A stretch of DNA of 64,000 bases, from the NCBI GenBank assembly GCA_037439485.1, contig JBBIVY010000003.1, positions 1,452-65,451 of the forward strand, given 5' to 3'. The translations under genes and the position numbers were made by a program. Each line of letters begins with the position of its first letter. Position 1 is the stretch's first letter. The DNA comes from Planctomycetota bacterium. Lineage in GTDB: Bacteria > Planctomycetota > DG-23 > DATKVD01. Positions 23,677 to 39,803 of this stretch are shown one piece after another. The notes beneath the pieces were generated by a model. It did not search any database, was not told the origin of the DNA, and saw only the letters and a list, made by a program, of their open reading frames with translations.

Positions 23677-24255
23677 ATGGAACGGCATACCGTCTTCAAA
23701 GGCCGCCGCATCGAGGTCGTCGTCGACCGCATCCCCGTGGAAAACGGGCGCACGGTCGAGCGCGAGATCGTATTGCATCCCGGCGCCGTGGTCATTGCCG
23801 CGGTCCCTTCGCCGGGCCGCGTGCTCATCCTCCGCCAGCACCGCCACGCCGTCGGCGGCGAACTCATCGAGCTTCCCGCCGGCACCCTTGAGCCGGGCGA
23901 AGCGCCCGAGGCGTGCGCCGCGAGAGAGCTGGAGGAGGAGACCGGTTTCGCCTCGCGGCGGATACGCCTCCTGACGTGCTTCTGGTCCTCGCCGGGGATA
24001 CTGCGCGAGAAGATGCACCTGTATCTCGCCGAGGATCTCGTGAAATCCGAGCAGCACCTCGACGAGGACGAAGTCCTCCGCGTCGAGGAGGTCTCGCTCG
24101 CGGACGCCGTCCAGTGGGTCAAGGACGGCCGCATCGCCGACGCCAAGACCGTGGCCGGGATTCTCTATCTCGCGCAGTTCGGGCCATTTCTCCCTCTCCC
24201 TCCGGGAGAGGGTCAGGGTGAGGGCAGTCGCCGACGGGATCGGACTTCCCCATGA
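23677..24255 (+). CDS. NUDIX hydrolase (ADP-ribose pyrophosphatase-like)
   Basis: ORF 23641-24255, likely start ATG 23677 (MERHTVFKGRRIEVVVD...); NUDIX box GGELIELPAGTLEPGEAPEACAARELEEETG; last ~22 codons are encoded by a REP-like element. Confidence 0.85.
   Translation: MERHTVFKGRRIEVVVDRIPVENGRTVEREIVLHPGAVVIAAVPSPGRVLILRQHRHAVGGELIELPAGTLEPGEAPEACAARELEEETGFASRRIRLLTCFWSSPGILREKMHLYLAEDLVKSEQHLDEDEVLRVEEVSLADAVQWVKDGRIADAKTVAGILYLAQFGPFLPLPPGEGQGEGSRRRDRTSP
24190..24224 (+). repeat. REP-like element family 2 (CTCCCTCTCCC-loop-GGGAGAGGG-TCAGGGTGAGGG), copy inside nudix 3' end
   Basis: ctccctctccctccgggagagggtcagggtgaggg; reverse-complement copies at 30756-30793 and ~60714-60751. Confidence 0.6.
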
Positions 24256-25046
24256 GACCCTACTACAACCACGACGACGAGTCGGATTCCAGGCAGGTCC
24301 GGTTCTCCTTCGGGTCGACGAGCACGGTCAAGGCGCTCATCGCCGTCAATGCGCTGGCTTACCTTGCCACGGTCGTCGCCGCCAAGGGGTATCCGAACGC
24401 CGATCTGTGGGTGGGTTTCTACCCCCCGAATTTCCTGCACCACTACGCCTGGTGGCAGCCGATAAGCTACATGTTCGTACACGGCGGCCTCTGGCACCTG
24501 CTTCTGAACATGTTCGGCCTTTTTATCTTCGCGGGGGCGGTCGAGCGCGAAATCGGGCGCGCACGGTTCCTGGTCATGTACTTCCTCTGCGGCATCGCCG
24601 GGGCGGCGCTCTCGTTTTTCGCGCCAAACACGGCAATCATCGGTGCCTCCGGTGGCGTGCTCGGCGTGACCACCGCTTTCGCCGTGCTCTTCCCGAACGA
24701 GCGGATCTGGATGTTCCTGGTCGTTGCGGTGAGGGCACGCTACTTCGCTATCTTCTATGTGTTCGTCACCGTGGCCGGACTCCTCGGCGCCGGCGGATAC
24801 CAGACCGCCTACTGGGCGCACCTCGGCGGCATCGCGGTCGGCTTCCTCTTCGTCGTCTCGCGTCCATGGTTCGAGCGCCTCGGGGGCTTCCTCCGCTTCC
24901 GCCGCGAGCAGGCCCGCGAAAGACGCTCCGCCTCCGAGGAAGCCGAACTCGACCGTATCCTCGACAAGGTCCATCGCGAAGGCATAACGGCTCTCTCCAA
25001 TTCAGAGCGGGAGTTTCTGAACCTCGTCAGCAAACGAAGACGGTGA
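24252..25046 (+). CDS. rhomboid-family intramembrane serine protease
   Basis: 264 aa; GASGGV (catalytic Ser GxSG), downstream AHLGGI (His), 6-7 TM; ATGA overlap with nudix stop. Confidence 0.85.
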   Translation: MRPYYNHDDESDSRQVRFSFGSTSTVKALIAVNALAYLATVVAAKGYPNADLWVGFYPPNFLHHYAWWQPISYMFVHGGLWHLLLNMFGLFIFAGAVEREIGRARFLVMYFLCGIAGAALSFFAPNTAIIGASGGVLGVTTAFAVLFPNERIWMFLVVAVRARYFAIFYVFVTVAGLLGAGGYQTAYWAHLGGIAVGFLFVVSRPWFERLGGFLRFRREQARERRSASEEAELDRILDKVHREGITALSNSEREFLNLVSKRRR

Positions 25047-25061
25047 CAGGGGAATCATTCC

Positions 25062-26456
25062 ATGACGGACAAAGCCTATCAGCAGTGCATCAACCCCGCG
25101 TGCGGAAAGGCATTCGGCATCACGCAGGTCCTCAGCCATTGCCCGTCGTGCGGCAACCTGGTGGATGTGCGATATGACTGGGACCGCCTGAGCGTGCCGA
25201 AGACGCTCTCCGAATTCGACAAGAAGCTCTCGCGGCGCAACCCGCTCGACCTCAGCGGGGTCTGGCGGTTCCGTGCGCTGATGCCCTTTGCGCCCGAGGA
25301 CAAGATCGCGACCATCGGCGAAGGGCAGACGCTCCTCCTCAATTCACCCGCCGTGGCGAAATACGCCGGGATGAAGCCCGAGAAGCTCTTCCTCCAATAC
25401 GAGGGCCTCAACCCGTCCGGGTCGTTCAAGGACAACGGCATGACCGCGGCGTTCACCCACGGGCGGATGGTCGGGGCCCGCGTGGCGGCGTGCGCTTCCA
25501 CCGGGAACACCTCCGCGTCGCTGGCGCTTTATGCCTCGCAGACGGGCGCGATGCGCGCGGTGGTCTTCGTGGGCGGCGGGAAGATCGCCTACGGCAAGCT
25601 GTCGCAGGCGCTCGAATACGGGGCGCTCACGCTCCAGATCGACGGGGACTTCGACGATGCGATGGCACGCGTGCAGGAGGTCTCGGCCGACCGCGGCATT
25701 TACCTCGTCAACTCGCTCAACCCGTTCCGGCTCGAAGGGCAGAAGGCCGTCATGTTCCGCATCCTCGAGGCGCTCGCGTGGGAGCCGCCCGACTGGATCA
25801 TCTGCCCCGGCGGCAACCTCGGCAATTCCTCCGCGTTCGGCAAGGCCTTCATGGAACTCGCCGCGCTCGGGCTGGTGAAGCGCGTGCCGCGCCTGGCCGT
25901 CATCAACTCGTCCGGCGCCCGCACGCTCTATCGCATCGTCGAGGAGAAGCATCTCCGCTGGAACTCCGGCCGCGTCGACGACGCCGCGATCGAGGCCGAT
26001 TACCGCGGCATGGACGCCCGGTGCGAGCGCGCGCACACCGTCGCCTCAGCTATCGAGATCAATCGGCCCGTGAACCTCAAGAAATGCCTGCGCGCCCTCG
26101 AGGCCATGAATGGCGTCGTCCGCGAAGTTCCCGACGACGACATCCTTGACGCCAAGGCGGCCATCGGCGCCGGGGGTCTCGGCTGCGAGCCGGCGTCCGC
26201 CGCGTCGGTGGCGGGGCTCCGGTTGCTCGTCAAAGAGCAGGTCATCTCGCCCACCGACCGCGTCGCGTGCGTGCTCACCGGGCACGTGCTGAAGGACCCG
26301 GACTTGTCGGTCGATTACCATTCGCTCTCGCTCGACGACTTCCGCGCGAAGTACGGGAAGAAGTTCGAGGTGAAGAAGCTCGCGCGGCAGAACGCGCCCG
26401 TCAAGGTTCCGAACGATCTCGGCGAAATCCTGAAGGTATTGGAGGCCAGGCTATGA
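25062..26456 (+). CDS. thrC: threonine synthase with N-terminal zinc-ribbon
   Basis: 464 aa; CINPACG...CPSCG zinc ribbon; PLP-lysine motif [10 protein letters not shown]; fold-type II PLP enzyme signatures. Confidence 0.9.
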
Positions 26457-27271
26457 CCGCGAAATCGAAATCCGCCGTCCGCGTCGGCGTCACCGGCGCC
26501 TCGGGCCGCATGGGCTTCATCGTCATCCGCCTCGTCGCGGAAGACCCCTCGCTCGCGCTCGCCGCGGCGCTCGAAGCGCCGGGACATCCGAGGCTGGGCG
26601 AGGACGCGGGCGTTGCCGCCGGTCTCGGCAAGCCGCTCGGCGTCAAGATCGCCCCGGCGCTTGCCGCGGACTGCGACGTCGTCGTCGATTTCTCGCTTCC
26701 CGCGGGGACGATGGCCGCGCTGCCGGAGTGCGTGAAGCGAGGCATCCCGATGGTCATCGGCACGACGGGTCTCGGCGAGGAGGACCTGAAGAAGATCGAG
26801 GCCGCGGCGAAGAAGATCCCGATCGTCTTCGCGCCCAACTTCTCCGTCGGCGTCAACTTGCTCTTCTCGATCGTCGGCAAGGTGGCCTCGGCCCTCGGCG
26901 ACGACTACGACTGCGAGATCGTCGAGATGCACCACCGCTTCAAGAAGGACGCGCCGTCGGGCACGGCCGCGAAACTCGCCGAGATTATCGCCACGGCCAC
27001 CGGCCGCGATCTCAAGGCCGACGGCGTCTTCGGTCGCGCCGGGTTGGTGGGGGAGCGGAAGAAGTCCGAGATCGGCATCCACGCCGTCCGCGGCGGCGAC
27101 GTCGTCGGCGATCACACCATCACCTTCGCCGGACTCGGCGAACGCATCGAATTCGCGCACAAGGCCGGTTCCCGCGAGATGTTCGCCCGCGGCGCAATCC
27201 GCGCCGTGAGGTTCCTCCTCGACGGTAAGAAGCCGGGGCTCTATTCGATGCTCGATGTGCTCGGATTGTGA
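26453..27271 (+). CDS. dapB: 4-hydroxy-tetrahydrodipicolinate reductase
   Basis: ORF 26267-27271 trimmed to ATG 26453 (ATGA overlap with thrC stop); [14 protein letters not shown](P) motif, [28 protein letters not shown]. Confidence 0.9.
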
Positions 27272-27338
27272 GAAGTTTCTCTTGCCACAGGGCACAGAGA
27301 GCACAGAGAGGAGAAGCCAATTCAGGGGTACAGCAAAG

Positions 27339-27436: not shown

Positions 27437-28540
27437 CTACTTCTCAACCTGGGAGGCGAGGAAATCCGAAGCGAACTTCTCGAATCGCTTTTCGATAATG
27501 GCCCGCCTGGCGTCCTTCATGAGCCGGCAGAAGAACGAGATGTTGTGGATGGAGACGAGCGTCAGGCCGAGGATTTCACTCGCGCGGAAGAGGTGGCGGA
27601 GGTAGCCGCGGGAGTAATTGCGGCAGGCGGGGCAGGGGCACGCGGCATCGAGCGGCGCGGCGGCGCGGGCGTGCTTGAGGTTCTTCATGCGGAGGATGCC
27701 CGTTGACGTGAACGCGAAGCCGTTGCGCCCGTTGCGCGTCGGCAGAACGCAGTCGAACATGTCGATCCCGCGCGCGATTCCCGCGAGCAAATCCCTCGGC
27801 GGCCCCACGCCCATGAGATATCGCGGACGGTCCTGCGGCAAGTGGGGCGCCGTGGCTTCAAGCATCTCGTTCATCACCTCCGGCCCCTCGCCGACGCTCA
27901 GTCCGCCGATCGCGTAACCGGGGAAATCCAACTCCATCAGCCTCTGAGCGCACTCCCGGCGCAGGTCCGGATACGTCGCCCCCTGTACGATGCCGAAGAG
28001 GGCCTGTGCCTCGTTCGTCCTGTGCTCTCTCGACCGCGCGGCCCAGGCAATTGTTCGCTCCATCGCCTCTTGCGCATAAGGCTTGTCGGCGGGGAACGCG
28101 GCGCACTCGTCGAGCGGCATGATGACGTCGGCCCCGAGCTTCGATTCGATGTCGACGACCGACTCGGGCGTCAACTCGATGGCGTGGCCGTCGATGTGGC
28201 TCTGGAACTTGACCGAGTGATCCGTGACCTTGCGCAACTCCGCGAGCGAGAAGACCTGGAACCCTCCCGAGTCCGTGAGGATCGGCCGCGACCAGTTCAT
28301 GAACCGGTGTAGTCCCCCCAGTGCCGCCACGGTCTCTTCGCCCGGCCGCAGGTGCAGGTGGTAGGTGTTCGCCAGGATCATCGTCGAGCCGGCCTCGGCA
28401 AGCTGGTCGGTCGTCACCGCCTTCACCGTCGCCTGAGTCCCCACCGGCATGAACACCGGCGTCTCCACGACGCCATGAGGGGTCACGAGCTCTCCCGCCC
28501 GTGCGCTTCCGTCCGTTGCCTTCAGTCGAAACTCGAACAT
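27437..28540 (-). CDS. tgt: queuine tRNA-ribosyltransferase
   Basis: ORF 27437-28570 trimmed to ATG 28540 (MFEFRLKATDGSARAGEL...); LTDSGGFQ, zinc site CPCPAC...H; 367 aa. Confidence 0.9.
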   Translation of the reverse strand: MFEFRLKATDGSARAGELVTPHGVVETPVFMPVGTQATVKAVTTDQLAEAGSTMILANTYHLHLRPGEETVAALGGLHRFMNWSRPILTDSGGFQVFSLAELRKVTDHSVKFQSHIDGHAIELTPESVVDIESKLGADVIMPLDECAAFPADKPYAQEAMERTIAWAARSREHRTNEAQALFGIVQGATYPDLRRECAQRLMELDFPGYAIGGLSVGEGPEVMNEMLEATAPHLPQDRPRYLMGVGPPRDLLAGIARGIDMFDCVLPTRNGRNGFAFTSTGILRMKNLKHARAAAPLDAACPCPACRNYSRGYLRHLFRASEILGLTLVSIHNISFFCRLMKDARRAIIEKRFEKFASDFLASQVEK

Positions 28541-28562
28541 ATCACCTCGCAATTCTGATGTT

Positions 28563-29306
28563 TCAGTCACCGAGATCCAAAGCGAGCGACTCGGAATTCG
28601 TTCGCGAGACGACGCGGGCGTCGCGCTGGAGCGCGGAGACCGCGGAAAGGACTCTCTTCAGCCGCTCCCATTCGCCGGGCTCGGTGATCTCGTAGAAATG
28701 TCCCCAGGCGTGCCAGAGGCCGCCGGTGCGCATCGCGTAGTCAAGGTTGGCGAGGGCGAAGTCGTCCCAGGTTCGTCCCCACAATCCGCGGCGGAGGAAG
28801 AACGCGATATAGGCCGGACTTCCGGCGAGCAGGGCTTCCTTGAGGTAGTGCCTGCGCGAATGCGGGCCCATGTGACAGGTCGTGGGCGCGAGCATCGGTT
28901 CGGGCGCGGCGAATCGGCACTCGCGGATGGTGCGGGCATAGGTGAACCCCAGTTCTCTCGCCGCGCCCGGCGCCCAGGCGGGGATCTTGCCGCCGGGATA
29001 GCAGAACGAGGTCACGGGCTTCGAGAGGATTCGCTCTAGGCGCTCCTTGCCGGCGCGGATTTCCTCGCGGCCGTCGGCGGGGGAGAGGCTGTCGAGGTAG
29101 CGGTGGGTGAATCCGTGGGCGCCGATCTCGAAGCCCATGGAATCGAGTTTGCGGATATCGTCTGGCGAGAGCGTCGGCCGGCCCTCGACGTTGGTGACGG
29201 GCACGTAGAACGTTGCGCGGAGGCCCAACTCCGCAAGCAGCCCCGCGACGTCGAGGTCCTTCGGATGGCCGTCATCGAAGCTGAGCGTCACGACCGTTCG
29301 ACCCAT
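28563..29306 (-). CDS. polysaccharide deacetylase (NodB-homology domain)
   Basis: ORF 28563-29330 (TTG) trimmed to ATG 29306 (SD GGGGAG); TLSFDDGH, His motif GAHGFTHR, FCYPGG. Confidence 0.8.
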   Translation of the reverse strand: MGRTVVTLSFDDGHPKDLDVAGLLAELGLRATFYVPVTNVEGRPTLSPDDIRKLDSMGFEIGAHGFTHRYLDSLSPADGREEIRAGKERLERILSKPVTSFCYPGGKIPAWAPGAARELGFTYARTIRECRFAAPEPMLAPTTCHMGPHSRRHYLKEALLAGSPAYIAFFLRRGLWGRTWDDFALANLDYAMRTGGLWHAWGHFYEITEPGEWERLKRVLSAVSALQRDARVVSRTNSESLALDLGD

Positions 29307-29326
29307 GCGCGGCTCCCCGGCGCTCG

Positions 29327-30676
29327 TCAATAGGCCTTGCGGATCTCGGTCTGCGGGTAGTAGAACTTCACGATCGCGTCATAGGTCCTTCCGAGGTCGG
29401 CGAGGCCCTTCGCTCCGTACTGGCACAGGCCGGCGCCGTGGCCCCAGCCGTGGCCGGTGAATTCCCACGACCTGTCGGAGCGCTTGGCGATGAAGAACAT
29501 GCTCTTGAGCACCCCCGGCCCCACGGCGAGGCGGAAGTCATTGCCCTTCATCGTGACGCTCGCGCGCGTGCCGACGACGGTGACGACGTCCATGTGCCCG
29601 TCGCCGTTGGTGTCGGCGAAGACGAGGTCGCGGAGCGCGCCGACGTTCCGTCCCGTCCGGTGCATCGCAGCCTCGATGTCCGCCGACGCGATCGTCTCGG
29701 TCCACTGGTAATACTTGCTCGCCTTGCAGGTGTCGCACGCGACCCCGGCCAGCGGCGGAATCGTCGGGTAATCGTCCCACACCAGGCCGCACGCCTCGGT
29801 GTGCCCGCCGCAGGTGGAGTGGAAATACGTGCGGAAGACCTTGCCGTTCCACGTGAGGATCTGCCCCGCGGTTGCCTGGACGGCCTCGATGCCGCGCGGG
29901 TGTTCGCCGGCGAGGCCCTGGTATTCCTGGTGCGTGAGGCCGGTGGACTCCATGTCCCACTCCGGCCGAGGCGCCGCCTGCTCGTGCTCGAGGAGCAGGG
30001 CGATGGTGTAGGTGCGCGCAATGACGGCCTGGGCCTTGAGCGCTTCGGCGGGCCAGTAGAAGAACATCTCGGCGGTGACGACGCCTGCGAGGTAGTCCTC
30101 GATGGGCAGGTCGTTGACGAGCGTCATGGAGCCGTCGGCGTTGGGGATGATGTCGAGCGATCCGCGGTAGGCGCGCGTGCCGACGACAAGCGTCTCGGGC
30201 TTTTTGGGGACGATCCGCGCGCGGGCTAGCTTCACGTTGCGCTTGCGCCCGGACTTGTCGACCGTGCTTATGATGACGCCGTCGGCAATGCCCTGGATGA
30301 CCGAGCCGCAGGCCGACTGCATCCACGGGCCCTGGGCCACGATCTCGTGCGTCCGCGCGTCCATCAGCTCCCACGGGCCGTTCACGCGGATGGGCATCGT
30401 CGGCCCGCCGCGGGTCTTTTCGGCCAGGAGCACGCGCACTCGCGGTTGATCGGCGAGGAGCGGCGGCGGAGGGGCCGCCGGAGGGGCCGCCGGAGCGGGA
30501 GCGGGCGCCGGAGCGGCCACTGCGGTCACGGTCCCGTCGCCGCAGCCGCCGGAGAGGATGATGATCGTCGCCGGCGCCGCCACGAGCATAATCGCAGCGG
30601 CGGCGATAACCGTCGCGACCCTTCCCGGCCGCAGCCGCGTAAGGGCAGCGCGGAATCGTTCCTGAAGCGTCGGCAT
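29327..30676 (-). CDS. SpoIID/LytB-domain protein (peptidoglycan amidase-enhancer-like), membrane-anchored
   Basis: ORF 29327-30781 trimmed to ATG 30676 (MPTLQERFRAALTRLRPGRVATVIAAAAIMLVAAP... TM anchor); SpoIID motifs VNDLPIEDYLAGVVTAEM, FHSTCGGHTE, GHGWGHGAGLCQYGA. Confidence 0.8.
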   Translation of the reverse strand: MPTLQERFRAALTRLRPGRVATVIAAAAIMLVAAPATIIILSGGCGDGTVTAVAAPAPAPAPAAPPAAPPPPLLADQPRVRVLLAEKTRGGPTMPIRVNGPWELMDARTHEIVAQGPWMQSACGSVIQGIADGVIISTVDKSGRKRNVKLARARIVPKKPETLVVGTRAYRGSLDIIPNADGSMTLVNDLPIEDYLAGVVTAEMFFYWPAEALKAQAVIARTYTIALLLEHEQAAPRPEWDMESTGLTHQEYQGLAGEHPRGIEAVQATAGQILTWNGKVFRTYFHSTCGGHTEACGLVWDDYPTIPPLAGVACDTCKASKYYQWTETIASADIEAAMHRTGRNVGALRDLVFADTNGDGHMDVVTVVGTRASVTMKGNDFRLAVGPGVLKSMFFIAKRSDRSWEFTGHGWGHGAGLCQYGAKGLADLGRTYDAIVKFYYPQTEIRKAY

Positions 30677-30755
30677 CGTGTTCCCCGTGTGCTTACTCTT
30701 CCCGCGCCGGGCCTTTGGCAGGGACTGTCCCGCCCTGTCGTTCGAAACGGCAAGA

Positions 30756-30793
30756 GCCCTCACCCTGACCCTCTCCCCCAAGGGGAGAGGGAG
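30756..30793. repeat. REP-like element family 2, copy in queH 3' flank
   Basis: gccctcaccctgaccctctcccccaaggggagagggag; ~13 nt beyond queH stop (TAA rc at 30806-30808). Confidence 0.6.
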
Positions 30794-30805
30794 AAGGAGC
30801 GGAAC

Positions 30806-31369
30806 TTACCCCTCCCCGCGCCACATCTCGTCGCGGGTGGCCTTGTAGCGATCATACTCGGAAAAGACGCAACCGCAATACTGCTGGCGGAATATGTTGT
30901 ATTTCTTCGCGAACTCGTCGCCGCGCTCGTGGGCGCGGGAGAGGTCAAAATCCTCGAAAGGCACGCCTGTGCGGGCGGATTCCTCTCGGGCGATGCGCCG
31001 GACGAGCGCGAGATCCTGCTCGGGGCTGGCGAGGAGCGTGGTGGAGAATGCATCGAAACCGAGCGTCTTCGCCCGGTCGGCCGCGCGGCCGAGGCGCATC
31101 CGGTAGCACGTCTCGCATCGCCCCGGCGCCTCGTGCCTCCCGGCAATCGCGGCGAGGTAGTCCTCCAGGCCGTATTCCCCCTCGATCACGAGCGGCATCT
31201 TCAGCCGGTCGCACAGCACCTGCGTTGCCTTGATCCGCCGGCGCCATTCGAGCAGCGGATGCACGTTCGGGTTTTGGAAGCACGCCGTCAGCGCGAGCTT
31301 CTTCCCGGCCAGTTCCAGAGCCGTCCCCGCGAGGCATACCGCGCAGCAGGTGTGGAGGAGGAGTTTCAT
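30806..31369 (-). CDS. queH: epoxyqueuosine reductase QueH (DUF208)
   Basis: 187 aa; N-terminal MKLLLHTCCAVCLAG Cys cluster and C-terminal YCGCVFSE typical of QueH. Confidence 0.8.
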   Translation of the reverse strand: MKLLLHTCCAVCLAGTALELAGKKLALTACFQNPNVHPLLEWRRRIKATQVLCDRLKMPLVIEGEYGLEDYLAAIAGRHEAPGRCETCYRMRLGRAADRAKTLGFDAFSTTLLASPEQDLALVRRIAREESARTGVPFEDFDLSRAHERGDEFAKKYNIFRQQYCGCVFSEYDRYKATRDEMWRGEG

Positions 31370-31378
31370 GGCGGGGAG

Positions 31379-31603
31379 CTACCTGCCCTCAAAGGCGGCG
31401 ACGAACTCCTCCGGTGTCACTCCTGCCTGCCGGAGGGCGCTTCGAAGCGTGCCGATGGCCAGTTCTTTGTGGACGGGGATGACACATCCGCGATCATTGC
31501 GGCGAAGGACAACGTGGCTGCCGCGTTGGCGAGGTTGCCGGAAACCGAGGCGCTCGAAGACGCGGATGGCCTCGGCGCCGGAGACCCGAGGCAGTTTAGG
31601 CAT
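31379..31603 (-). CDS. hicA: HicA-family mRNA-interferase toxin
   Basis: 74 aa; FERLGFRQPRQRGSHVVLRR...PVHKELAIGTLRSALRQAGV matches HicA/YcfA fold signature; 8-bp overlap with upstream hicB. Confidence 0.75.
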   Translation of the reverse strand: MPKLPRVSGAEAIRVFERLGFRQPRQRGSHVVLRRNDRGCVIPVHKELAIGTLRSALRQAGVTPEEFVAAFEGR

Positions 31604-31805
31604 GGACCGCGACCTCGAAGGTCGTGATCATGGGATGGGAGGATCCCTCGGTCGGGAATTCCTCGAGGTAGAGTTCGGTGGCCTCCTTGAGGTTGCTCAG
31701 GGCCTCCTCGACCGTCGCGCCCTGACTGACGGTTCCCACCTCGGGGCAGTCCGCGACGAAGAGCTCTCCCTCCTTGTGGAGCACCGCCGTCAATACGCGT
31801 GTCAT
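31596..31805 (-). CDS. hicB: HicB-family antitoxin (UPF0150)
   Basis: 69 aa; VLHKEGELFVADCPEVGTVSQGATVEEALSNLKEATELYLEE typical HicB N-domain; precedes hicA (reversed order). Confidence 0.7.
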   Translation of the reverse strand: MTRVLTAVLHKEGELFVADCPEVGTVSQGATVEEALSNLKEATELYLEEFPTEGSSHPMITTFEVAVHA

Positions 31806-32998: not shown

Positions 32999-33265
32999 CT
33001 ACGCCCGGCAGATGTACGTCTCGTCGATCTCGGCGCCCCTATAGGGGCCGTCGCCGCTGCCATCGTCCTGCGGCCGGTCGAAGACTACGTAACAGAAGAC
33101 CATCATCCGCTCGGAGCCCTGAACGAAACGCCGATGGCCTCTCCCACCGTTCGGCTCCGTGAGTTCCAACATGAACGGCTCCGGCAAGGCGAGGGCGCCG
33201 GATATCCCGTCCCCCAACCTGGGGTCGCCAGCAACTATCACTTTGTCGCCAGGCTCGAACGTCAT
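32999..33265 (-). CDS. small hypothetical protein (88 aa) inserted between ruvA and ruvB
   Basis: ATG overlaps ruvA stop as ATGA (translational coupling); moderate-GC codon usage; MTFEPGDKVIVAGDPRLGDGISGALALPEPF...; family not recognised. Confidence 0.45.
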   Translation of the reverse strand: MTFEPGDKVIVAGDPRLGDGISGALALPEPFMLELTEPNGGRGHRRFVQGSERMMVFCYVVFDRPQDDGSGDGPYRGAEIDETYICRA

Positions 33266-33855: not shown

Positions 33856-33871
33856 GAGAAGCCCGGGAAGA

Positions 33872-33975
33872 GGGTTAAAGGTTGAAGGTTGAATGTTGAA
33901 GGCTGGCGGACGGCCCGACGCGCGCCAAGCGCTTTCATCTTTCCGTCAGCGTTCAACGTTCAACCTTCAACCCGT
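33872..33975. repeat. ~100-bp hairpin element with arms of GGTTGAA heptamer repeats
   Basis: Arm GGTTGAAGGTTGAATGTTGAAGG (33880-33902) vs complement CGTTCAACGTTCAACCTTCAACC (33949-33971), 21/23 bp; ~46-nt loop; between TPR gene stop and ruvA start. Confidence 0.55.
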
Positions 33976-33983
33976 TGCATCCG

Positions 33984-35324
33984 TTACTTATCGTCCTTCA
34001 GCTTGAGTCCCATGCCGGCGAGCTTCGAGCGGATCTCGTTGAGCGAGGTCTGGCCGAAGTTCTTGCACTCGAGCAGTTCGGGCTCGGAGCGGTCGCAGAG
34101 GTCGCCGATGGTGACGAGGGCCAGCTTGGACATGCACTTGCGCGAGCGGACGGAAAGCTCGAGTTCGGCGAGCGGCTTGGCTTTGATGGCGTCGAGTTCG
34201 GACTTGCCGCGGGAGCCGAAGGGCGTCGAGCGGGGCTTCGGGGCGTCCTTCTCCATCGCCTGGCCGAGGCGCAGGCCCTTCGAGGTCATCATGCTCTTGA
34301 TCTCGTTGAGCGAGGTCTCGCCGAAGTTCTTGAAGCTCAGGAGGTCCTGTTCGGTGACGCGCGTCAGGTCGCCCAGCGTGTGGACGCCCATCTTGTCCAG
34401 GCAGTTGCGCGAGCGGACGGAAAGCTCGAAGTCCGTGACCGGGATCTCGAGGACCTTGTTCTGGCGGTCCTGCTTGCGCTCGAGCTCCTCGTCGTAATAC
34501 ATCGTGAGGGAACTCTGGGTGTCGCGGAGGAAGAGCTTGGCGCGCTCGTGGGTCGGCTGCCACTTGATCACGCGCTCGAAGCAGCGGGCCGCCTCCTCAT
34601 AGCGCCCGGCGTCCTCGTAGAGGATGCCCAGGTTGATCAGCGCGTTCACGTGAACCGGCCGCACGCCCGCGCACCGCTCGTAGAGATCCAGCGCCTCTTC
34701 GTCGTCCCCGCGCAGGTCCGCGTTGTAGGCCAGGCGGAAGAGCGAATTCGCGTGCGACGGGTTGATCTCGATCGCTTTCGAGTATTCCTCGATGGCGCCG
34801 TCGTAGTTCTGGGCCACGTCGTGCATCATGCCCATCTGGTAGTGATATTCGGCGTCGCCGTCGTGCTTCTTGCCGAGCGCCAGCAGGGCCTTGTCGGCGT
34901 CCGCATGCTCGCCGCAGCCGCGAAGCGCCGCGACCTTGCCCAACTCGTAGGCGAGCTTCGATTCCTTCTCGGCGAGCTTCGCATAAAGCTTCAGCGCCGA
35001 GCGGAACTGCCCGGCGGCCAGCGCGCACTCGGCCTCCAGCTCGCGCGCGAAGTCGTCGCGCTTCACCTCGGCGAGGCTCTCCGCCGCGCCTTCGAACCGC
35101 GAGAGCACCCACTGAAGCGCCCCGAGCTGGTAGTAGAGGTCGTGCGACTTGTCGGTGTTGCGGGCCTTCTTCGCCTTCTCCGCCAGGTCCGCCACGGCCG
35201 TCGCAATCTGCCGGCGTAGCGGGGCGTCCACCGACGCCTTCATCTTCAGCTCCGCCAGCTTCGCGCCGGCCAGGTCCTCGATCTTGATCTCTCCGAGCCC
35301 TTCGATGGTCAGTGCTTCGCTCAT
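33984..35324 (-). CDS. TPR-repeat protein with two tandem RNA polymerase alpha-subunit C-terminal-domain-like (alpha-CTD) modules
   Basis: 446 aa; N-terminal ~280 aa TPR-like; two copies of alpha-CTD-like motif ELSVRSRNCLDKMGVHTLGDLTRVTEQDLLSFKNFGETSLNEIKSMMTSKGLRLG and ELSVRSRKCMSKLALVTIGDLCDRSEPELLECKNFGQTSLNEIRSKLAGMGLKL. Confidence 0.75.
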   Translation of the reverse strand: MSEALTIEGLGEIKIEDLAGAKLAELKMKASVDAPLRRQIATAVADLAEKAKKARNTDKSHDLYYQLGALQWVLSRFEGAAESLAEVKRDDFARELEAECALAAGQFRSALKLYAKLAEKESKLAYELGKVAALRGCGEHADADKALLALGKKHDGDAEYHYQMGMMHDVAQNYDGAIEEYSKAIEINPSHANSLFRLAYNADLRGDDEEALDLYERCAGVRPVHVNALINLGILYEDAGRYEEAARCFERVIKWQPTHERAKLFLRDTQSSLTMYYDEELERKQDRQNKVLEIPVTDFELSVRSRNCLDKMGVHTLGDLTRVTEQDLLSFKNFGETSLNEIKSMMTSKGLRLGQAMEKDAPKPRSTPFGSRGKSELDAIKAKPLAELELSVRSRKCMSKLALVTIGDLCDRSEPELLECKNFGQTSLNEIRSKLAGMGLKLKDDK

Positions 35325-35417
35325 CCGAGCCTCCGTTGATGGGTCAGTAGAACGCGCCTTAGGCCAAGTATTATATCAGATGCTGCGGGCTTGTCAAGCC
35401 AACCTGATGGGCGACGC

Positions 35418-35536
35418 AAGTGTCACGTAGCCATGAACTTACGACTGACACATGACAACTGACGAGCAAGGGCCTTGAGACGCGCGGGGTGCTTCCGGAG
35501 TCGTTGCCTGTCAGTTGTCACGTGTCAGTTATCAGC
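35418..35536. repeat. ~120-bp inverted-repeat MITE-like element (copy 1) with CACGTG-containing termini
   Basis: left AAGTGTCACGTAGCC...CGACTGACACATGACAACTGACGAG, right CGTTGCCTGTCAGTTGTCACGTGTCAGTTATCAG; second copy 41257-41378 (right arms 31/36 identical); overlaps MFS stop codon. Confidence 0.55.
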
Positions 35537-36712
35537 GCCGGAGGCCCGATCGATGCCCCGTCCCAGGACCCAGCAGGCGACCAGTCCCGCCGCCGCGACG
35601 GCGAGGGCGATGAGGAGTCCCGGGACATAGCTCTTCGTGACGTCGACGAGATGCCCGTTGAGGCTCGGGGCGAAGGACGAGATTCCCTGCGCGGCCATGA
35701 CGAGCGGGTAGACCGTGCCGAGGACGTGCGGGCCGTAGAGTCGCGCGACCGCGGCGGGATAGATCGCGAAGTTGCTCCCGTAGCAGAAGCCGACGCCGCA
35801 GGCCGCGACGAGGAACACGGCCGGGTGCCGCTGTCCCGCGACGACGAGCGCGAGGACGAGCGTCGTGAGCAGCGCCAGGGCGCCCACCAGGGATCGACGG
35901 ATGCCGAAGCGGTCGGTGGCGTGTCCCCAGGCGATTCGTCCCACGGCGTTGCCCGCGGCCATGACTCCGACGCCGATGGCCGCCGCGGCGCCGACGCCGA
36001 AGGCGAGGGCCATGCTCTTGACGGTGCCCATGATGGTGAGGAAGGGGAGGGTGCCGGCGAGCATGCCGACGGCGAGAGCCCAGAAGCGCCGGTCGCGCAA
36101 AAGCCTGCGGCGGTCGAATGCCTCGGCCTCGTCGGCGCCGGCCTCGCCGGGCCTGGCGGGAGGATTGACGAGGCACAACGCGAGCGCGAGGATGACGGGC
36201 GTATAGACGAACCCGACGACGCGGAAGACCTCAAGCACGCGCCAGCCGCGCTGGAAGAGCGCCTCGGCGATGAGCGACAGCACCAGCGGCCCGCAGGCGT
36301 AACCGGCCGCGGCGATTCCGCTGATGAGGCCGCGGCGTTCCGGGAACCATTTCACCGCGACGGCCAGCGGGCAGACGTAGCCGATGGCCGAGCCCGAGCC
36401 GAGGAGCACTCCGACCGCGAGCCAGAGCCACCCATAATGGTAGCCGAGGTACGTCGCCAGAAGCCACCCGCAGCCGACGCACACGGAGCTTGCGAGCGCC
36501 AGCGGCCTCGGGCCCACGCGGTCGTGGATGCGCCCGGCGAAGACGAGCGTGAGGCAGAAGAAGAACGTCAGCGTGTTGAAGACGAGCTGCATCTGGAAGG
36601 AGGTGAAGCCGTATTCCTCGTGGAAGCGCATCGCAAAGACGCTCCACGCCTGCCCGGTGCCCAGGCACACGAGCATCATCACGCACGCGATGAGGATGAG
36701 GTAGCGCTTCAT
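35525..36712 (-). CDS. MFS transporter (oxalate/formate antiporter-like)
   Basis: 395 aa, 12 predicted TM; 6+6 organisation with central hydrophilic loop; MFS-type motifs. Confidence 0.8.
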   Translation of the reverse strand: MKRYLILIACVMMLVCLGTGQAWSVFAMRFHEEYGFTSFQMQLVFNTLTFFFCLTLVFAGRIHDRVGPRPLALASSVCVGCGWLLATYLGYHYGWLWLAVGVLLGSGSAIGYVCPLAVAVKWFPERRGLISGIAAAGYACGPLVLSLIAEALFQRGWRVLEVFRVVGFVYTPVILALALCLVNPPARPGEAGADEAEAFDRRRLLRDRRFWALAVGMLAGTLPFLTIMGTVKSMALAFGVGAAAAIGVGVMAAGNAVGRIAWGHATDRFGIRRSLVGALALLTTLVLALVVAGQRHPAVFLVAACGVGFCYGSNFAIYPAAVARLYGPHVLGTVYPLVMAAQGISSFAPSLNGHLVDVTKSYVPGLLIALAVAAAGLVACWVLGRGIDRASGADN

Positions 36713-36769: not shown

Positions 36770-36793
36770 GTCAGACAGGAATGTCTGACCTAC
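36770..36793. repeat. REP-like element family 1 variant whose CTAC provides the stop codon of upstream gene
   Basis: GTCAGACAGGAATGTCTGAC + CTAC; on - strand reads G-TAG-hairpin where TAG is stop of 36790-38469; extra hairpin CAGGCCC...GGGCCTG at 36734-36759. Confidence 0.55.
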
Positions 36794-38469
36794 CCTGCAT
36801 AGTATCGCCGGAGCATCCGCCTGCGGGGCAGGTCGACGGGGAAGCCGGCGCGGTCGGCGTGGTAGATGCGGGCGAGTTCCTCGAAATCCGCGTCGAGGAC
36901 GTCGGTCATCCGGCCGCGGGAGCGGTCGAGTTCGGCGTCGATCTCGGCACGGAGCGCAAGGAGCCGCCAGCGGACGTCCTTCTTCGCGGAGGTCGGCATC
37001 ATCGCCTCGACGGAGCGCGCGGAGGCCAGCGTCTCGGCGGCGCCCGAGAGACTTACGCACTTGAACGCGGCGCTCGCGGGGAAGCCGGGCGGGTTCGATT
37101 TCGCGGCCGCGGGGTCTTCCCTGAGGGCAATGCTCCGCGCGTGCCGTGCTTCCATCCCGGCGACGATGCGCTCGACGGCCTCGACCGACTCCGAGCCGAA
37201 GTAGTTCGAGGCATACTCGCGCACGGTCTCGGCGGCGTCCTGGCCGTCCCAATAATGCCCCAGGCAGATCGCCTTGTTGAGGTCCTCGTAGATCCCCTCG
37301 GAGTAGGGGAACCCGCCGCTGAGCTTCGAGCCCGCCGAGTCCCACAGGCTCTGGATGTGCCGCGGCAGCGGGTTGGCGCCATAACCGCCCCAGGGGAAGC
37401 TCTTATACATGCTGATCTCGGGGAAGTTGAGGAGCTTCGCGCCGCCCGGCGCGCCGTGGGCGAGGGTGTGCGCGGGATAGTTGTCGCCGGAATCGTCGGC
37501 GAGGAGGTACTTCAGCCACTTCGGCGGCGCTTCGTTCGCCGCCTTCGCGAAGCCGTCCCATTCGCCCGAGGTGAAGTGGTCGAAATACCAGGTCGAGAGG
37601 ATGATCTCCGTTCGCGGCATCACCTCGCCAATGACCCCGGCCACGGCGTCCGCGGTGCGCAGGAAGCCGTTTGCCCCCCAGGGCGCACACCGGCCGCACG
37701 TGCATCCGCCCTGGTCGTAGGGCCAGATCCACGTGAAGCGGATGTCGAGGTCGGCGAAGGCCCGGAGCATCTCGCGCCGGGTGCTCGTGATGTAGTCGAG
37801 CCCGCCCGGTTTTGACGGGCAGATTTCATCGTGATAGTGTCCGCCCGGCTCGGAGGTGTAGCCGTCGTGTCCCGCCGTCCAGTCGGCGCGCAACTCCTGG
37901 GGGCTGTCGGCGTAGCCTTCGTTGCCGATCGTGACGAGCGCCCCCGCGATGCCGACCTGTTCCGCGGCGCGCAATATCGAGTGAAGCCGGCGGATCATCT
38001 CCTTTGCGGCGGGGTCGGCGAGGCCGGTGTAATGGTGCATGTCGAACCAGACCGCGAGCGTGTTGCATCCCCAGAGCGCGAGGTCGCGGACGTAGGCGTT
38101 CACTTCGTCGAGGGGGGCATTGTGGTAGAAGTTGTGGAAGTGCGTCGCGAAGTAGATTCCGCGGATAGGCCGCTCCGGGACGGAGGCCCCGCGCCAGCGC
38201 GAGGGATCGAGCCCGGCGTTGGTCCACCGGCTCGTGCGGAGGAACTTCCCCACGCCCGGCATGAGCCCGCCCGGCCTGTGCGCGATGATCTTGATCGGCC
38301 CCCGAGGCGAGCCGTCGATTTCGAACCCGTCGTCCTCGCCGTCCAGGAGGTCCAGCACCACCTCTACCCGCTTCGCCCGCCTCCGCGTCAGTTCCTCCAT
38401 CAACACCTGCGCCGCCGCATCCACCAGCGGCTCGCCTTTCGCTTCCTTCGTCGCGCGGACGCGGATCAT
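36790..38469 (-). CDS. putative TIM-barrel glycoside-hydrolase-like protein (560 aa)
   Basis: ORF 36790-39069 trimmed to ATG 38469 (MIRVRATKEAKGE...) just downstream of SGNH gene stop; segment GIYFATHFHNFYHNAPLDEVNAYVRDLALWGCNTLAVWFDMHHY resembles GH-like TIM barrel; family not resolved. Confidence 0.55.
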   Translation of the reverse strand: MIRVRATKEAKGEPLVDAAAQVLMEELTRRRAKRVEVVLDLLDGEDDGFEIDGSPRGPIKIIAHRPGGLMPGVGKFLRTSRWTNAGLDPSRWRGASVPERPIRGIYFATHFHNFYHNAPLDEVNAYVRDLALWGCNTLAVWFDMHHYTGLADPAAKEMIRRLHSILRAAEQVGIAGALVTIGNEGYADSPQELRADWTAGHDGYTSEPGGHYHDEICPSKPGGLDYITSTRREMLRAFADLDIRFTWIWPYDQGGCTCGRCAPWGANGFLRTADAVAGVIGEVMPRTEIILSTWYFDHFTSGEWDGFAKAANEAPPKWLKYLLADDSGDNYPAHTLAHGAPGGAKLLNFPEISMYKSFPWGGYGANPLPRHIQSLWDSAGSKLSGGFPYSEGIYEDLNKAICLGHYWDGQDAAETVREYASNYFGSESVEAVERIVAGMEARHARSIALREDPAAAKSNPPGFPASAAFKCVSLSGAAETLASARSVEAMMPTSAKKDVRWRLLALRAEIDAELDRSRGRMTDVLDADFEELARIYHADRAGFPVDLPRRRMLRRYYAG

Positions 38470-38495
38470 GATGTTCCTCTTTGGGATCGCGCTCT

Positions 38496-38538
38496 TTGTT
38501 CTTCCCTCTCCGTTGGGGAAGAGGGAAGAGAAGACTAC
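38496..38538. repeat. REP-like hairpin + CTAC overlapping stop codon of SGNH hydrolase gene
   Basis: CTTCCCTCT-ccgttgggg-AAGAGGGAAG then AGAAGACTAC; CTA (38535-38537) is rc TAG stop of 38535-39803. Confidence 0.45.
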
Positions 38539-39803
38539 TTCTTCGCCGCATAGGGCGGCCAGTCGAAGTGGGGCGCGCCGAAGAGGGTTTCGAGTATCTC
38601 GGCCATCATGACGTGGCCCATGATGTCGGGGTGATAGTCGTTGGCGAGATAGGCCCAGGCGTATTTCTCGCCGCGATACATGCTCCAGCGGGTGATGTCG
38701 GCGAAGGCGACCTTCTCCGCCTTGGCGAAGGCGCGGAGTTTCTCGCTGATTTCCTTGGAGAGCTTTGGGATGCTGCCGCCGGTGGTGGGGGACATGACGA
38801 CGATCTGCGAGGTCTTCTTCTTCAGCGTATCGACGAGGACCTTGACGTTCGCGAGCCACTGGTCGGGGGACTTGCCCGCCCAGCCCATGTCGTTGGCGCC
38901 GAACTCGATGAGGACAACATCCTCCGTGCCCGTCTCGGCGAGCACCTCGGGCAGCTTGGACTTCGCCTGTTCCGCCTGCCAGCCGCCCCAGCCCTTCTGC
39001 ACGGGGGTGATGCCCTTGTAGCCGTAGCGCGTTTCCAGACCGCGCGCGAGGTCGGAGAAATAGAGGCACGGCATGATGTCCGCGGGTTTCAGGCCCCAGT
39101 TGCCCCGGTTCGCCTGCGCGCCCGCCGTGACGGAATCGCCGAACCCGATGATCTTGAACGGCTTCTTCTCCTTCAGCCGCGCGACCGTGGGCGCCAGCGC
39201 CTCGGCCCCGCCCACGAGGTCCTTCGTGTTGATCGTCTCATCCGGCCCCGCCGTGGGCGTGATCGCCGGGCTTGAGTCGAACGCCGGGCCTTCGGTGCCG
39301 AGGCGGTCGATGATGAACCACACGTCGTGCTCGGCGGGTTTGGCCAGGCCTATGGCGAACATGTACCCGAGGTCGGGCTTGTCGGCCTTCGTGCCCAACT
39401 GCTCCCACGTGAGGTCAATCTTCTTCCACTCGGGCGTCACCTTAAAGGTCGCCTTGCCCTTGATCGTCATCTCGAGCGGCTCCGACGACTTGGCATAGAG
39501 CGTGATTCCTGCCATGCCGGTCGGCCACGCGTCGTTCTCGTAGGTGAGCGTGCCCTTCTCTCCCGCCTTCACGTCGACGCGAAGGGCGACGCCGTCGGTC
39601 ACGGAGTCTTTCGTCGCGTAGCGCCGCGCCCCGACCGGCAGCACCTTGCCCGGGCCGCCGAGCTGCACGCAGAACCAGAGGCCCGTGCGGTTCTCGGAGG
39701 AGTCTCCGCCCTTCTTGAACGGCTTGAAGTCGCCGCGCGCGAGCGCGGGGGCCAGCATCACCGCGACGGCCGCGGCGAGACACAGGGCTCTTCGCGTCGT
39801 CAT
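38535..39803 (-). CDS. secreted SGNH/GDSL hydrolase
   Basis: ORF 38535-39827, best start ATG 39803 (SD AGGAGG 7 nt upstream; MTTRRALCLAAAVAVMLAPALA signal); GDS motif IIGFGDSVTAG, catalytic DYHPDIMGH. Confidence 0.8.
   Translation of the reverse strand: MTTRRALCLAAAVAVMLAPALARGDFKPFKKGGDSSENRTGLWFCVQLGGPGKVLPVGARRYATKDSVTDGVALRVDVKAGEKGTLTYENDAWPTGMAGITLYAKSSEPLEMTIKGKATFKVTPEWKKIDLTWEQLGTKADKPDLGYMFAIGLAKPAEHDVWFIIDRLGTEGPAFDSSPAITPTAGPDETINTKDLVGGAEALAPTVARLKEKKPFKIIGFGDSVTAGAQANRGNWGLKPADIMPCLYFSDLARGLETRYGYKGITPVQKGWGGWQAEQAKSKLPEVLAETGTEDVVLIEFGANDMGWAGKSPDQWLANVKVLVDTLKKKTSQIVVMSPTTGGSIPKLSKEISEKLRAFAKAEKVAFADITRWSMYRGEKYAWAYLANDYHPDIMGHVMMAEILETLFGAPHFDWPPYAAKK

Follow-up and report, generated by a model that had tools for sequence, protein, structure and literature searches.

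The C-terminal domain of the RNA polymerase (RNAP) alpha subunit (alpha-CTD; Pfam family PF03118) is among the best-studied bacterial transcription modules, and is usually viewed as an appendage of that subunit (RpoA). Alpha uses the acidic residues D259 and E261 (the '261 determinant') to contact region 4 of sigma70. In Escherichia coli, K298, one of the six residues of the '265 determinant' (R265, N268, C269, G296, K298 and S299), is reportedly a key phosphate contact in the binding of UP-element DNA, and R265 is said to be solvent-exposed and dispensable for folding of the domain. Some bacterial lineages also have essential factors of their own that bind both RNAP and DNA, including GrgA of the chlamydiae (which fall within the Planctomycetes-Verrucomicrobia-Chlamydiae (PVC) superphylum), CarD of actinobacteria and myxobacteria, and RbpA. 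Here we analyze a 64,000-nucleotide stretch of DNA from a bacterium of the phylum Planctomycetota (positions 1,452 to 65,451 of contig JBBIVY010000003.1, assembly GCA_037439485.1), hereafter called the window, in which a gene on the minus strand (33984..35324) encodes a protein with a solenoid of tetratricopeptide repeats (TPRs) followed by two copies of the alpha-CTD, an architecture that we denote TPR-(alpha-CTD)2.

By homology, the C-terminal modules of this protein are two true RNAP alpha-CTDs, derived from RpoA and placed behind the TPR solenoid. They share with the RpoA domain (1COO, 1LB2) the domain family, 45-48% identity and the residues equivalent to R265, N294, G296, S299 and E302, to which copy 1 adds N268, C269, D259 and E261; the two alpha-CTDs of each RNAP core are mirrored by two in each molecule. 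The protein differs from RpoA in having a TPR solenoid instead of the alpha N-terminal assembly domain, in carrying both copies on one chain, and in the replacement of K298 by Thr and, in copy 1, of K297 by Glu. By analogy with GrgA, CarD and RbpA, the family is phylum-restricted, probably essential, small and cytoplasmic, and would combine DNA-binding with protein-interaction modules; however, it has no sequence or domain relationship to any of the three, and for this family RNAP binding and an effect on transcription are predictions. We tentatively hypothesize, at somewhat short of an even chance, that the family is a phylum-specific, essential, DNA-binding general transcription accessory factor, in which a pair of alpha-CTDs acting in trans is mounted on a TPR adaptor.

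Domain architecture of the protein

The open reading frame (ORF) at 33984..35324, taken from a six-frame ORF list, runs on the minus strand from an ATG start to a TAA stop and is a complete gene of 446 amino acids (aa). An identical protein (P0001, 100% identity) is present in public collections, and the gene is also called on a Logan contig. We read the product as a cytoplasmic protein, with an acidic N-terminus that has neither a signal peptide nor a hydrophobic segment.

The Pfam model RNA_pol_A_CTD (PF03118) matches the protein over two stretches with 143.2 bits (E = 2e-42) against a gathering score of 23.8, the best of the two lying at aa 284-346. When the PDB is searched by sequence, aa 280-362 give an ungapped alignment with the alpha-CTD of E. 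coli RpoA (1coo, 1lb2; E ~1e-14), and aa 376-445 pair with RpoA alpha-CTDs from Streptomyces, Caulobacter and Mycobacterium (E 1e-15 to 1e-12); every PDB chain that matches the C-terminal region is an RpoA. Over 66 aligned residues, copy 1 and E. coli are 48% identical, copy 2 and E. coli 45%, and the two copies 47%. An earlier note on this DNA, made from its letters alone, had proposed two alpha-CTD copies at the C-terminus on the strength of a signature motif, and that motif is indeed present in both: FELSVRSRNCLDKMGVHTLGDL...KNFGETSLNEI in copy 1 and LELSVRSRKCMSKLALVTIGDL...KNFGQTSLNEI in copy 2.

An AlphaFold2 model built on a 113-sequence alignment (mean predicted local distance difference test score (pLDDT) 89.3; predicted template-modelling score (pTM) 0.65) gives each module a compact four-helix fold of the double helix-hairpin-helix type, (HhH)2, with pLDDT of about 90. 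The helices lie at aa 303-311, 317-320, 325-329 and 336-348 in module 1 and at aa 392-400, 406-410, 414-418 and 425-437 in module 2; after offsets of 39 and 128, these limits presumably coincide with E. coli helices 264-273, 278-283, 286-292 and 297-309 of 1COO. A generic HhH or RuvA-like motif, which the earlier note had raised as the alternative to an alpha-CTD, is ruled out: PF03118 is the top model by a wide margin, no HhH model is found among the 25 best, and the evidence from hidden Markov models, from PDB sequences and from the predicted fold is in every case for an alpha-CTD. Where the note allotted 140 aa to the two domains, their C-terminal location stands, and their extent has to be revised, as the two copies and the tether between them fill the last ~160 aa.

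The N-terminal ~280 aa, proposed in the same note to be TPR-like, score above gathering with TPR_2 (71 bits), TPR_1 (65 bits), TPR_8 (53 bits) and other TPR models over approximately aa 87-265. Repeats can be read directly at aa 158-191, 192-225 and 226-259, giving at least three tandem 34-residue units with the G8/A20/A27/P32 pattern, and the AlphaFold2 model places 14 helices in hairpins over aa 20-273, as in a TPR-type solenoid. Comparison of the whole model with the PDB by Foldseek returned only generic TPR proteins (the top 50 are all TPR), and the combined architecture was found in no solved structure. Peptide-binding TPR scaffolds (OGT/SPINDLY, PEX5, subunits of APC/C and designed CTPR proteins) match the N-terminal 270 aa at a Foldseek probability of 1.0, a likeness that is generic to the repeat (13-22% identity, TM 0.3-0.45); none of them carries an alpha-CTD, and neither an asparagine ladder nor a carboxylate clamp is evident in the sequence of the window protein.

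The protein can accordingly be divided into six segments, all encoded on the minus strand. A variable acidic N-terminus (aa 1-19, 35268..35324) has a pLDDT of 39 at aa 1-10 and an entropy of 2.81 bits. The 14-helix solenoid (aa 20-273, 34506..35267), delimited by Pfam, AlphaFold2, Foldseek and conservation, has as its conserved part the three canonical TPRs at aa 158-259 and a capping helix. It is followed at aa 274-294 (34443..34505) by a conserved acidic motif, (T)MYYDEE, in which M275, D278 and E279 are at least 90% conserved, and by a connector helix (aa 279-292) leading into the first alpha-CTD; with a pLDDT of 66-81, this helix has the lowest confidence within the folded part, and in a truncated model (aa 1-358; pTM 0.69) confidence is likewise weakest at aa 271-290. 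Copy 1 of the alpha-CTD (aa 295-356, 34257..34442) is nearly invariant phylum-wide. A variable, disordered tether of ~25 aa (aa 357-382, 34179..34256), with pLDDT below 50 at aa 359-374 and insertions and deletions in the alignment, separates it from copy 2 (aa 383-446, 33987..34178), which by column counts is less constrained.

Separation from RpoA and other alpha-CTD proteins

The possibility that the gene is rpoA itself, or encodes a split alpha, was rejected: the protein has no match to PF01000 (RNA_pol_A_bac) or PF01193 (RNA_pol_L), the models of the N-terminal domain through which alpha dimerises and assembles with beta/beta', aa 1-273 are TPR, and rpoA is a separate gene in Planctopirus limnophila. 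The rpoA equivalog models of NCBIfam match only via their last ~80 positions, with 92-137 bits against cutoffs of 228-523 (for example, 137 against 302). The window gene lies outside the rpsM-rpsK-rpsD-rpoA-rplQ cluster, its neighbours being a major facilitator superfamily (MFS) transporter and ruvA, and a tblastn search with E. coli RpoA across the window found just the two CTD copies.

Alpha-CTDs in tandem, outside their usual context, also occur in several other proteins found by the search of representative sequences. P0265, P0354, P0390, P0298 and P0383 carry from 3 to at least 10 tandem PF03118 domains: P0265 (1031 aa) has 10 copies behind an N-terminus that by eye is apparently hydrophobic, P0390 has 5, P0298 has 3, and P0383, which looks like a C-terminal fragment of a cyanobacterial-type RpoA, has three. 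Unlike the window family, these proteins have no TPR, are of other lengths, mostly have Lys or Arg at position 298, and are rare singletons among the representatives. An alpha-CTD-like segment outside RpoA is also known in PglW, a kinase of the bacteriophage exclusion (BREX) system. Identity with PglW was rejected, as the NCBIfam model gives 30.3 bits against a cutoff of 990 and the similarity is confined to one domain-sized alpha-CTD-like stretch, a full-length match being absent; an origin in a defence system was set aside likewise, since PADLOC gives only a domain-level PglW match (31.9 bits over ~100 aa).

Conservation of the two copies and their DNA-contact residues

Conservation was measured on 113 full-length members of the family, which are ~40-45% identical overall; residues are given in E. 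coli RpoA numbering. Copy 1 is the most constrained part of the protein, with a mean column entropy of 0.74 bits and identity of at least 98% in 29 of 62 columns. Copy 2 follows with 1.30 bits (7 of 61 columns), then the three canonical TPRs with 1.73 bits (8/117), the N-terminal half of the solenoid with 2.55 bits (0/137), and the tether with 2.99 bits (0/26).

The equivalent of R265 (R304 in copy 1, R393 in copy 2) is Arg in all 113 members in both copies, that is, in 226 of 226 domain copies. The equivalents of N294 and G296 are likewise kept in 113/113 in both copies, S299 in 113/113 of copy 1 and 112/113 of copy 2, and E302 in 113/113 and 107/113, respectively. C269 is Cys in every copy 1 (113/113) and in 96/113 of copy 2, while N268 is Asn in 111/113 of copy 1 and Lys or Arg in 108/113 of copy 2 (Lys in the window protein). 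Five of the six residues of the '265 determinant' are kept, K298 being systematically changed. As to the DNA-contact residues singled out for checking in the earlier note, the result is mixed: R265 and G296 are found in both copies and N268 in copy 1, but copy 2 has Lys in place of N268, and both copies have Thr in place of K298. An Arg at 267 and a Lys or Arg at 293 are common to the two copies. The acidic pair D259/E261 is kept only in copy 1 (112/113 and 113/113); in copy 2 the position of E261 is variable (Glu in 53, Asn in 36, Gly in 10).

Because R265 is fully kept, although it is exposed and not needed for folding, the pattern argues for retained nucleic-acid binding, and the preservation of R265, N294, G296, S299 and E302 in both copies favours such binding over a role as a pure decoy, which the earlier note had listed as one option beside a DNA-binding scaffold and an RNAP-associated factor. 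Since derived states are shared by the two copies, their history suggests the capture of one alpha-CTD and its tandem duplication before the phylum radiated. Within the solenoid, the concave-face positions F196, D203, N231, E237 and D238, in the last two repeats, are conserved, and the face that they line resembles a ligand-binding groove.

Distribution across the Planctomycetota

A search of 5.8 billion proteins was examined over its best 120 matches, which are 436-460 aa long (a few fragments are shorter, and an occasional call is longer), have the same Pfam content, and are 41-82% identical to the window protein. P0002 is 82% identical, and more than 110 full-length members are 40-64% identical. 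Members share a TPR N-terminus, an invariant DFELSVRSRNC...KNFGETSL in copy 1 and a second copy after a variable tether, all of which the window protein has. The named members come from Planctomycetes, Phycisphaerae or Gemmata, and cultured Symmachiella species are included. An exhaustive phmmer search with the tandem alpha-CTD region against 1.84 billion representatives gave 261 clusters (50% identity) at E<=1e-30, and nearly all of the best 150 clusters are of ~440 aa and the same architecture, with the match at the C-terminus.

A scan of GTDB, one genome per species, with the peptide patterns KNFGETSL and DFELSVR[SA]R found the family in at least 592 species genomes (confirmed relatives). 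Among the best 80 loci, 78 are labelled Planctomycetota and two 'uncultured bacterium'; they span the Planctomycetia, Phycisphaerae and Brocadiia, and include the Pirellulales, Gemmatales, Isosphaerales, Planctomycetales, Kolteria, the Phycisphaerae (Phycisphaerales, Sedimentisphaerales and Fontivita) and the anammox class Brocadiia. The family is universal across the sampled Planctomycetota and apparently restricted to that phylum. By tblastn, the phage and plasmid collections do not contain the TPR-(alpha-CTD)2 architecture, and a mobile origin was rejected, as the matches found there are ordinary rpoA genes in mislabelled records.

In databases, members go under the names 'DNA-directed RNA polymerase subunit alpha C-terminal domain-containing protein' and 'tetratricopeptide repeat protein'. 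Misnaming as 'DNA-directed RNA polymerase subunit alpha' is frequent (in records of the Joint Genome Institute (JGI), UniRef and some of NCBI), despite the absence of an alpha N-terminal domain. PF03118 has served as a single-copy phylogenomic marker (PMC3663571), and the family adds two PF03118 hits per planctomycete genome. In our literature search, the TPR-(alpha-CTD)2 family was not discussed in any paper: it is already present and named in databases, and flagged as essential in a supplementary table, but was never characterised in the literature searched.

Essentiality of a probable ortholog in Planctopirus limnophila

The flagged gene is Plim_0602, which was found to be essential in P. 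limnophila by TraDIS (transposon-directed insertion-site sequencing; Rivas-Marin et al. 2023, Supplementary Data 2 and 6; PMC10632474). Its homologs were reported in 42/45 Planctomycetes, 42/79 PVC genomes and 0/4655 other prokaryotes (PMC10632474); the 42 of the PVC count are the same 42 as in the Planctomycetes, and therefore none lies outside the Planctomycetes within the PVC superphylum. The gene appears in the supplementary tables only, without discussion in the main text (PMC10632474).

Plim_0602 is very probably the ortholog of the window gene, as judged from its name, its deduced length, synteny and its phyletic pattern. Its insertion index equals 1/1355, which by arithmetic corresponds to one insertion in a 1356-nt gene of 451 aa, and a 451-aa subgroup of the TPR-(alpha-CTD)2 family exists in the Planctomycetaceae. 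Plim_0600, a non-essential SpoIID/LytB protein (PMC10632474), lies two genes from Plim_0602, and the same arithmetic gives it 433 aa, equal to the median of the SpoIID family. Homology searches seeded from Planctomycetaceae members, together with cluster and contig look-ups, did not surface the named P. limnophila protein. By analogy with Plim_0602, the window gene is probably essential too. The canonical rpoA of P. limnophila is Plim_0499, also essential and located next to rplQ (PMC10632474), and by its index it is a full-length gene of 336 aa. A full-length rpoA is therefore separate in this species, so that the TPR-(alpha-CTD)2 protein acts besides a normal alpha subunit.

Gene neighbourhood

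All ORFs of the 80 loci and of the window were clustered, and the resulting families were ranked by recurrence and named via Pfam. The genes that follow downstream in the same orientation form a conserved string, [ruvA-ruvB-queH in some lineages]-spoIID (PF08486)-tgt (PF01702)-yajC (PF02699)-secDF, of which secDF was recognized by eye only. As the next gene downstream (<=400 nt), tgt is found in 22, spoIID in 20 and ruvA in 8 of the 80 loci. In 52 loci the downstream genes include spoIID, tgt or both (at least 3 kb of downstream sequence is available in 63 loci), and 28 loci have neither as neighbour. Nothing is conserved on the upstream side among the 80 loci. A functional link to ruvAB was rejected, since ruvA adjoins the gene in so few loci and the adjacency is lineage-specific, and the earlier note was broadly right to see no relation to ruvAB.

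The order in the window is MFS, TPR-(alpha-CTD)2, ruvA, an 88-aa ORF, ruvB, hicB-hicA, queH, spoIID, polysaccharide deacetylase and tgt. At 27437-31369 (minus strand), queH (PF02677), spoIID (PF08486), the polysaccharide deacetylase gene (PF01522) and tgt (PF01702) follow one another, such that two queuosine genes flank two peptidoglycan-modifying genes; the order spoIID-tgt-yajC-secDF is conserved across classes of the Planctomycetota. A HicA toxin (PF07927, E = 8e-18) and a HicB-like antitoxin (31379-31805, minus strand) are inserted between ruvB and queH, and 0 of the 80 related loci have this pair. The 88-aa ORF (32999-33265, minus strand) between ruvA and ruvB shares 4 nt (ATGA) with the ruvA stop. 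It has neither a Pfam family nor a relative among the 80 loci, but gene calling on the matching Logan contig (L081) includes it. The start of the long ruvB ORF (33063) is probably too far upstream, because homology to RuvB begins at about residue 46-58. Four further long ORFs near the locus, all on the minus strand (36790-39069, 21002-23449, 26315-27304 and 24213-24974; 759, 815, 329 and 253 aa), have no Pfam family at E <= 1e-3, and some of them may be shadow ORFs in high-GC sequence.

Expression signals and bracketing hairpins

A putative sigma70-type promoter, TTGACA-16 nt-TATAAT with a TGn extended -10 (35370..35397, minus strand), lies ~45 nt upstream of the ATG and matches the motif at 12 of 12 positions, which is conspicuous against the ~66% G+C of the window; the scan found 1 site at >=9/12 where 0.2 were expected. 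A Shine-Dalgarno sequence, GGAGG (35330..35334, minus strand), can be read directly 5 nt before the ATG. In L001, the closest relative among the loci (its protein is 62% identical), the ortholog likewise has a 12/12 site with TG in front of it, and sites of at least 10/12 are present in 27 of the 80 loci within a 750-nt search space, a raw count made without a null model.

Two long hairpins bracket the gene. The first, imperfect, occupies 33874-33973 (within 33858-33990), between the stop of the target gene (33984) and the start of ruvA (33855). It has a minimum free energy (MFE) of -56.5 kcal/mol (z = -5.1), with 0/200 shuffles as stable, and has no U-tract; its arms consist of the tandem heptamers GTTGAAG GTTGAAC GTTGAAC and their reverse complement, a motif unique to that spot within the window (4 matches against 0 expected). 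It is absent in L001, in which ruvA starts after 15 nt, and it could be a terminator, an insulator, or a protein-binding site upstream of ruvA. The second lies at 35440-35533 (within 35430-35540), after the MFS stop (35525) and upstream of the target promoter, and has a 20-bp perfect stem, ACUGACACGUGACAACUGAC / GUCAGUUGUCAUGUGUCAGU, with an internal periodicity of ~7 nt (MFE -48.1 kcal/mol, z = -3.9). Rfam gave no match at gathering score on the gene and its flanks, the MFS-side hairpin having sub-threshold matches only, to microRNA-precursor-like families. Because its own promoter and the two hairpins bracket it, the gene looks like an independently transcribed unit in the source genome.

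Discussion

If the family is a general transcription accessory factor, as we tentatively suggest, both alpha-CTD modules would grip DNA through the minor-groove arginine equivalent to R265 and the HhH hairpin (N294, G296 and S299), like the pair of RNAP itself, and copy 2 on its tether, together with copy 1 behind the connector helix, would make this a bivalent and flexible grip. The acidic D259/E261 patch of copy 1 would touch sigma region 4, so that the protein would act at or near promoters with the RNAP holoenzyme, and one more protein would be brought in by the concave face of the C-terminal TPRs. Because copy 1 keeps the sigma-facing acidic patch, the most economical reading is that the protein acts at promoters with the holoenzyme. 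A bolder version, which we regard as rather unlikely, is that this essential phylum-specific factor supplies a second pair of alpha-CTDs in trans, with one copy next to the TPR platform contacting sigma region 4 and promoter-proximal DNA, and the tethered copy reaching upstream DNA.

Several observations weigh against the proposal of a transcription factor. The main internal argument against canonical UP-element binding is the substitution of K298: its equivalent is Thr in 113/113 of copy 1 and 107/113 of copy 2, whereas Lys is found at 298 in every solved RpoA for which an alignment was displayed, and the equivalent of K297 is Glu in 112/113 of copy 1. Binding of the UP type may thus be weakened or altered. 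DNA binding, RNAP association and sigma contact are all predictions, and copy 1 might just as well owe its invariant surface to a different conserved partner or to a contact within the protein itself. The AlphaFold2 models, with their pTM of 0.65 and 0.69, do not define the placement of copy 1 relative to the TPR. The neighbouring genes (spoIID, tgt, yajC, secDF and ruvAB) include no transcription genes, and the link to essentiality rests on the probable orthology of Plim_0602, as judged from name, deduced length, synteny and phyletic pattern.

The rival that survives best, although we still consider it unlikely, is a scaffold of the nucleoid, the chromosome or the cell cycle, in which the (HhH)2 modules would bind DNA with little specificity and the TPR would oligomerise or tether DNA to the segregation, division or envelope machinery, with no direct role in initiation. 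The conserved contact residues would fit the non-specific binding of backbone and minor groove that is typical of HhH domains, and the loss of K298, which speaks against the canonical UP-element mode, is in line with it; yet the domain is specifically an alpha-CTD and no generic HhH, and the D259/E261 patch that is invariant in copy 1 would be needless in a pure nucleoid protein. Gene position speaks for the scaffold as well, since the next gene downstream is spoIID, which serves peptidoglycan remodelling, in 20 loci and ruvA, which encodes a DNA-repair protein of the HhH type, in 8/80. Against it, P. limnophila can do without SpoIID but not without Plim_0602, the genes tgt-yajC-secDF make up a housekeeping string that has no DNA function, and the synteny may reflect old gene order only. 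A phylum-specific essential gene would also suit the planctomycete-specific cell biology of bacteria that lack FtsZ (PMC10632474).

Less probable still is a decoy or adaptor, whose modules, without useful DNA binding, would present alpha-CTD surfaces to regulators, sigma or NusA-like partners, and sequester them or deliver them to whatever the TPR binds. The change of K298 to Thr in both copies and of K297 to Glu in copy 1 strips positive charge from the DNA-contact hairpin, the protein-facing equivalents of D259, E261, T285 and E286 are conserved in copy 1, and TPR domains are protein-protein modules, as such a role would have it. A decoy, however, has no use for the minor-groove arginine that is kept in all 226 domain copies; N268 is kept or replaced by Lys or Arg, with R267 and K/R293 contributing further positive charge close to the DNA-facing side; and decoys are seldom essential or conserved phylum-wide. 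A regulator acting locally, on the operon that follows its own gene (spoIID / tgt-yajC-secDF, or ruvAB in the lineage of the window), would explain the conserved gene order, with a same-strand spoIID or tgt starting within 400 nt of the stop in 42/80 loci, but is very improbable given the loci that have neither neighbour, the promoter and two long hairpins that set the window gene apart, an extreme constraint and phylum-wide retention unusual for such a regulator, and the dispensability in P. limnophila of the adjacent spoIID where the probable ortholog is essential.

In this family, the alpha-CTD has left the polymerase, has been duplicated and fused to a protein-binding scaffold, and is strongly constrained across a phylum, and its probable ortholog could not be disrupted in the sole planctomycete with a genome-wide essentiality map. 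It is one of few Planctomycetes-specific essential proteins with a clear domain-based hypothesis. Should a nucleoid or division role prove true, the family would offer a clue to FtsZ-independent biology. If the role in transcription is true, it would be a general factor that is absent from model organisms, and would open a way into promoter reading in a phylum whose cell biology is very divergent; and if the protein supplies a second alpha-CTD pair in trans, promoter recognition in these bacteria would depend on a factor that has no counterpart in model bacteria and represents a new class of general transcription factors in bacteria, one that stems from a domain of an RNAP subunit.

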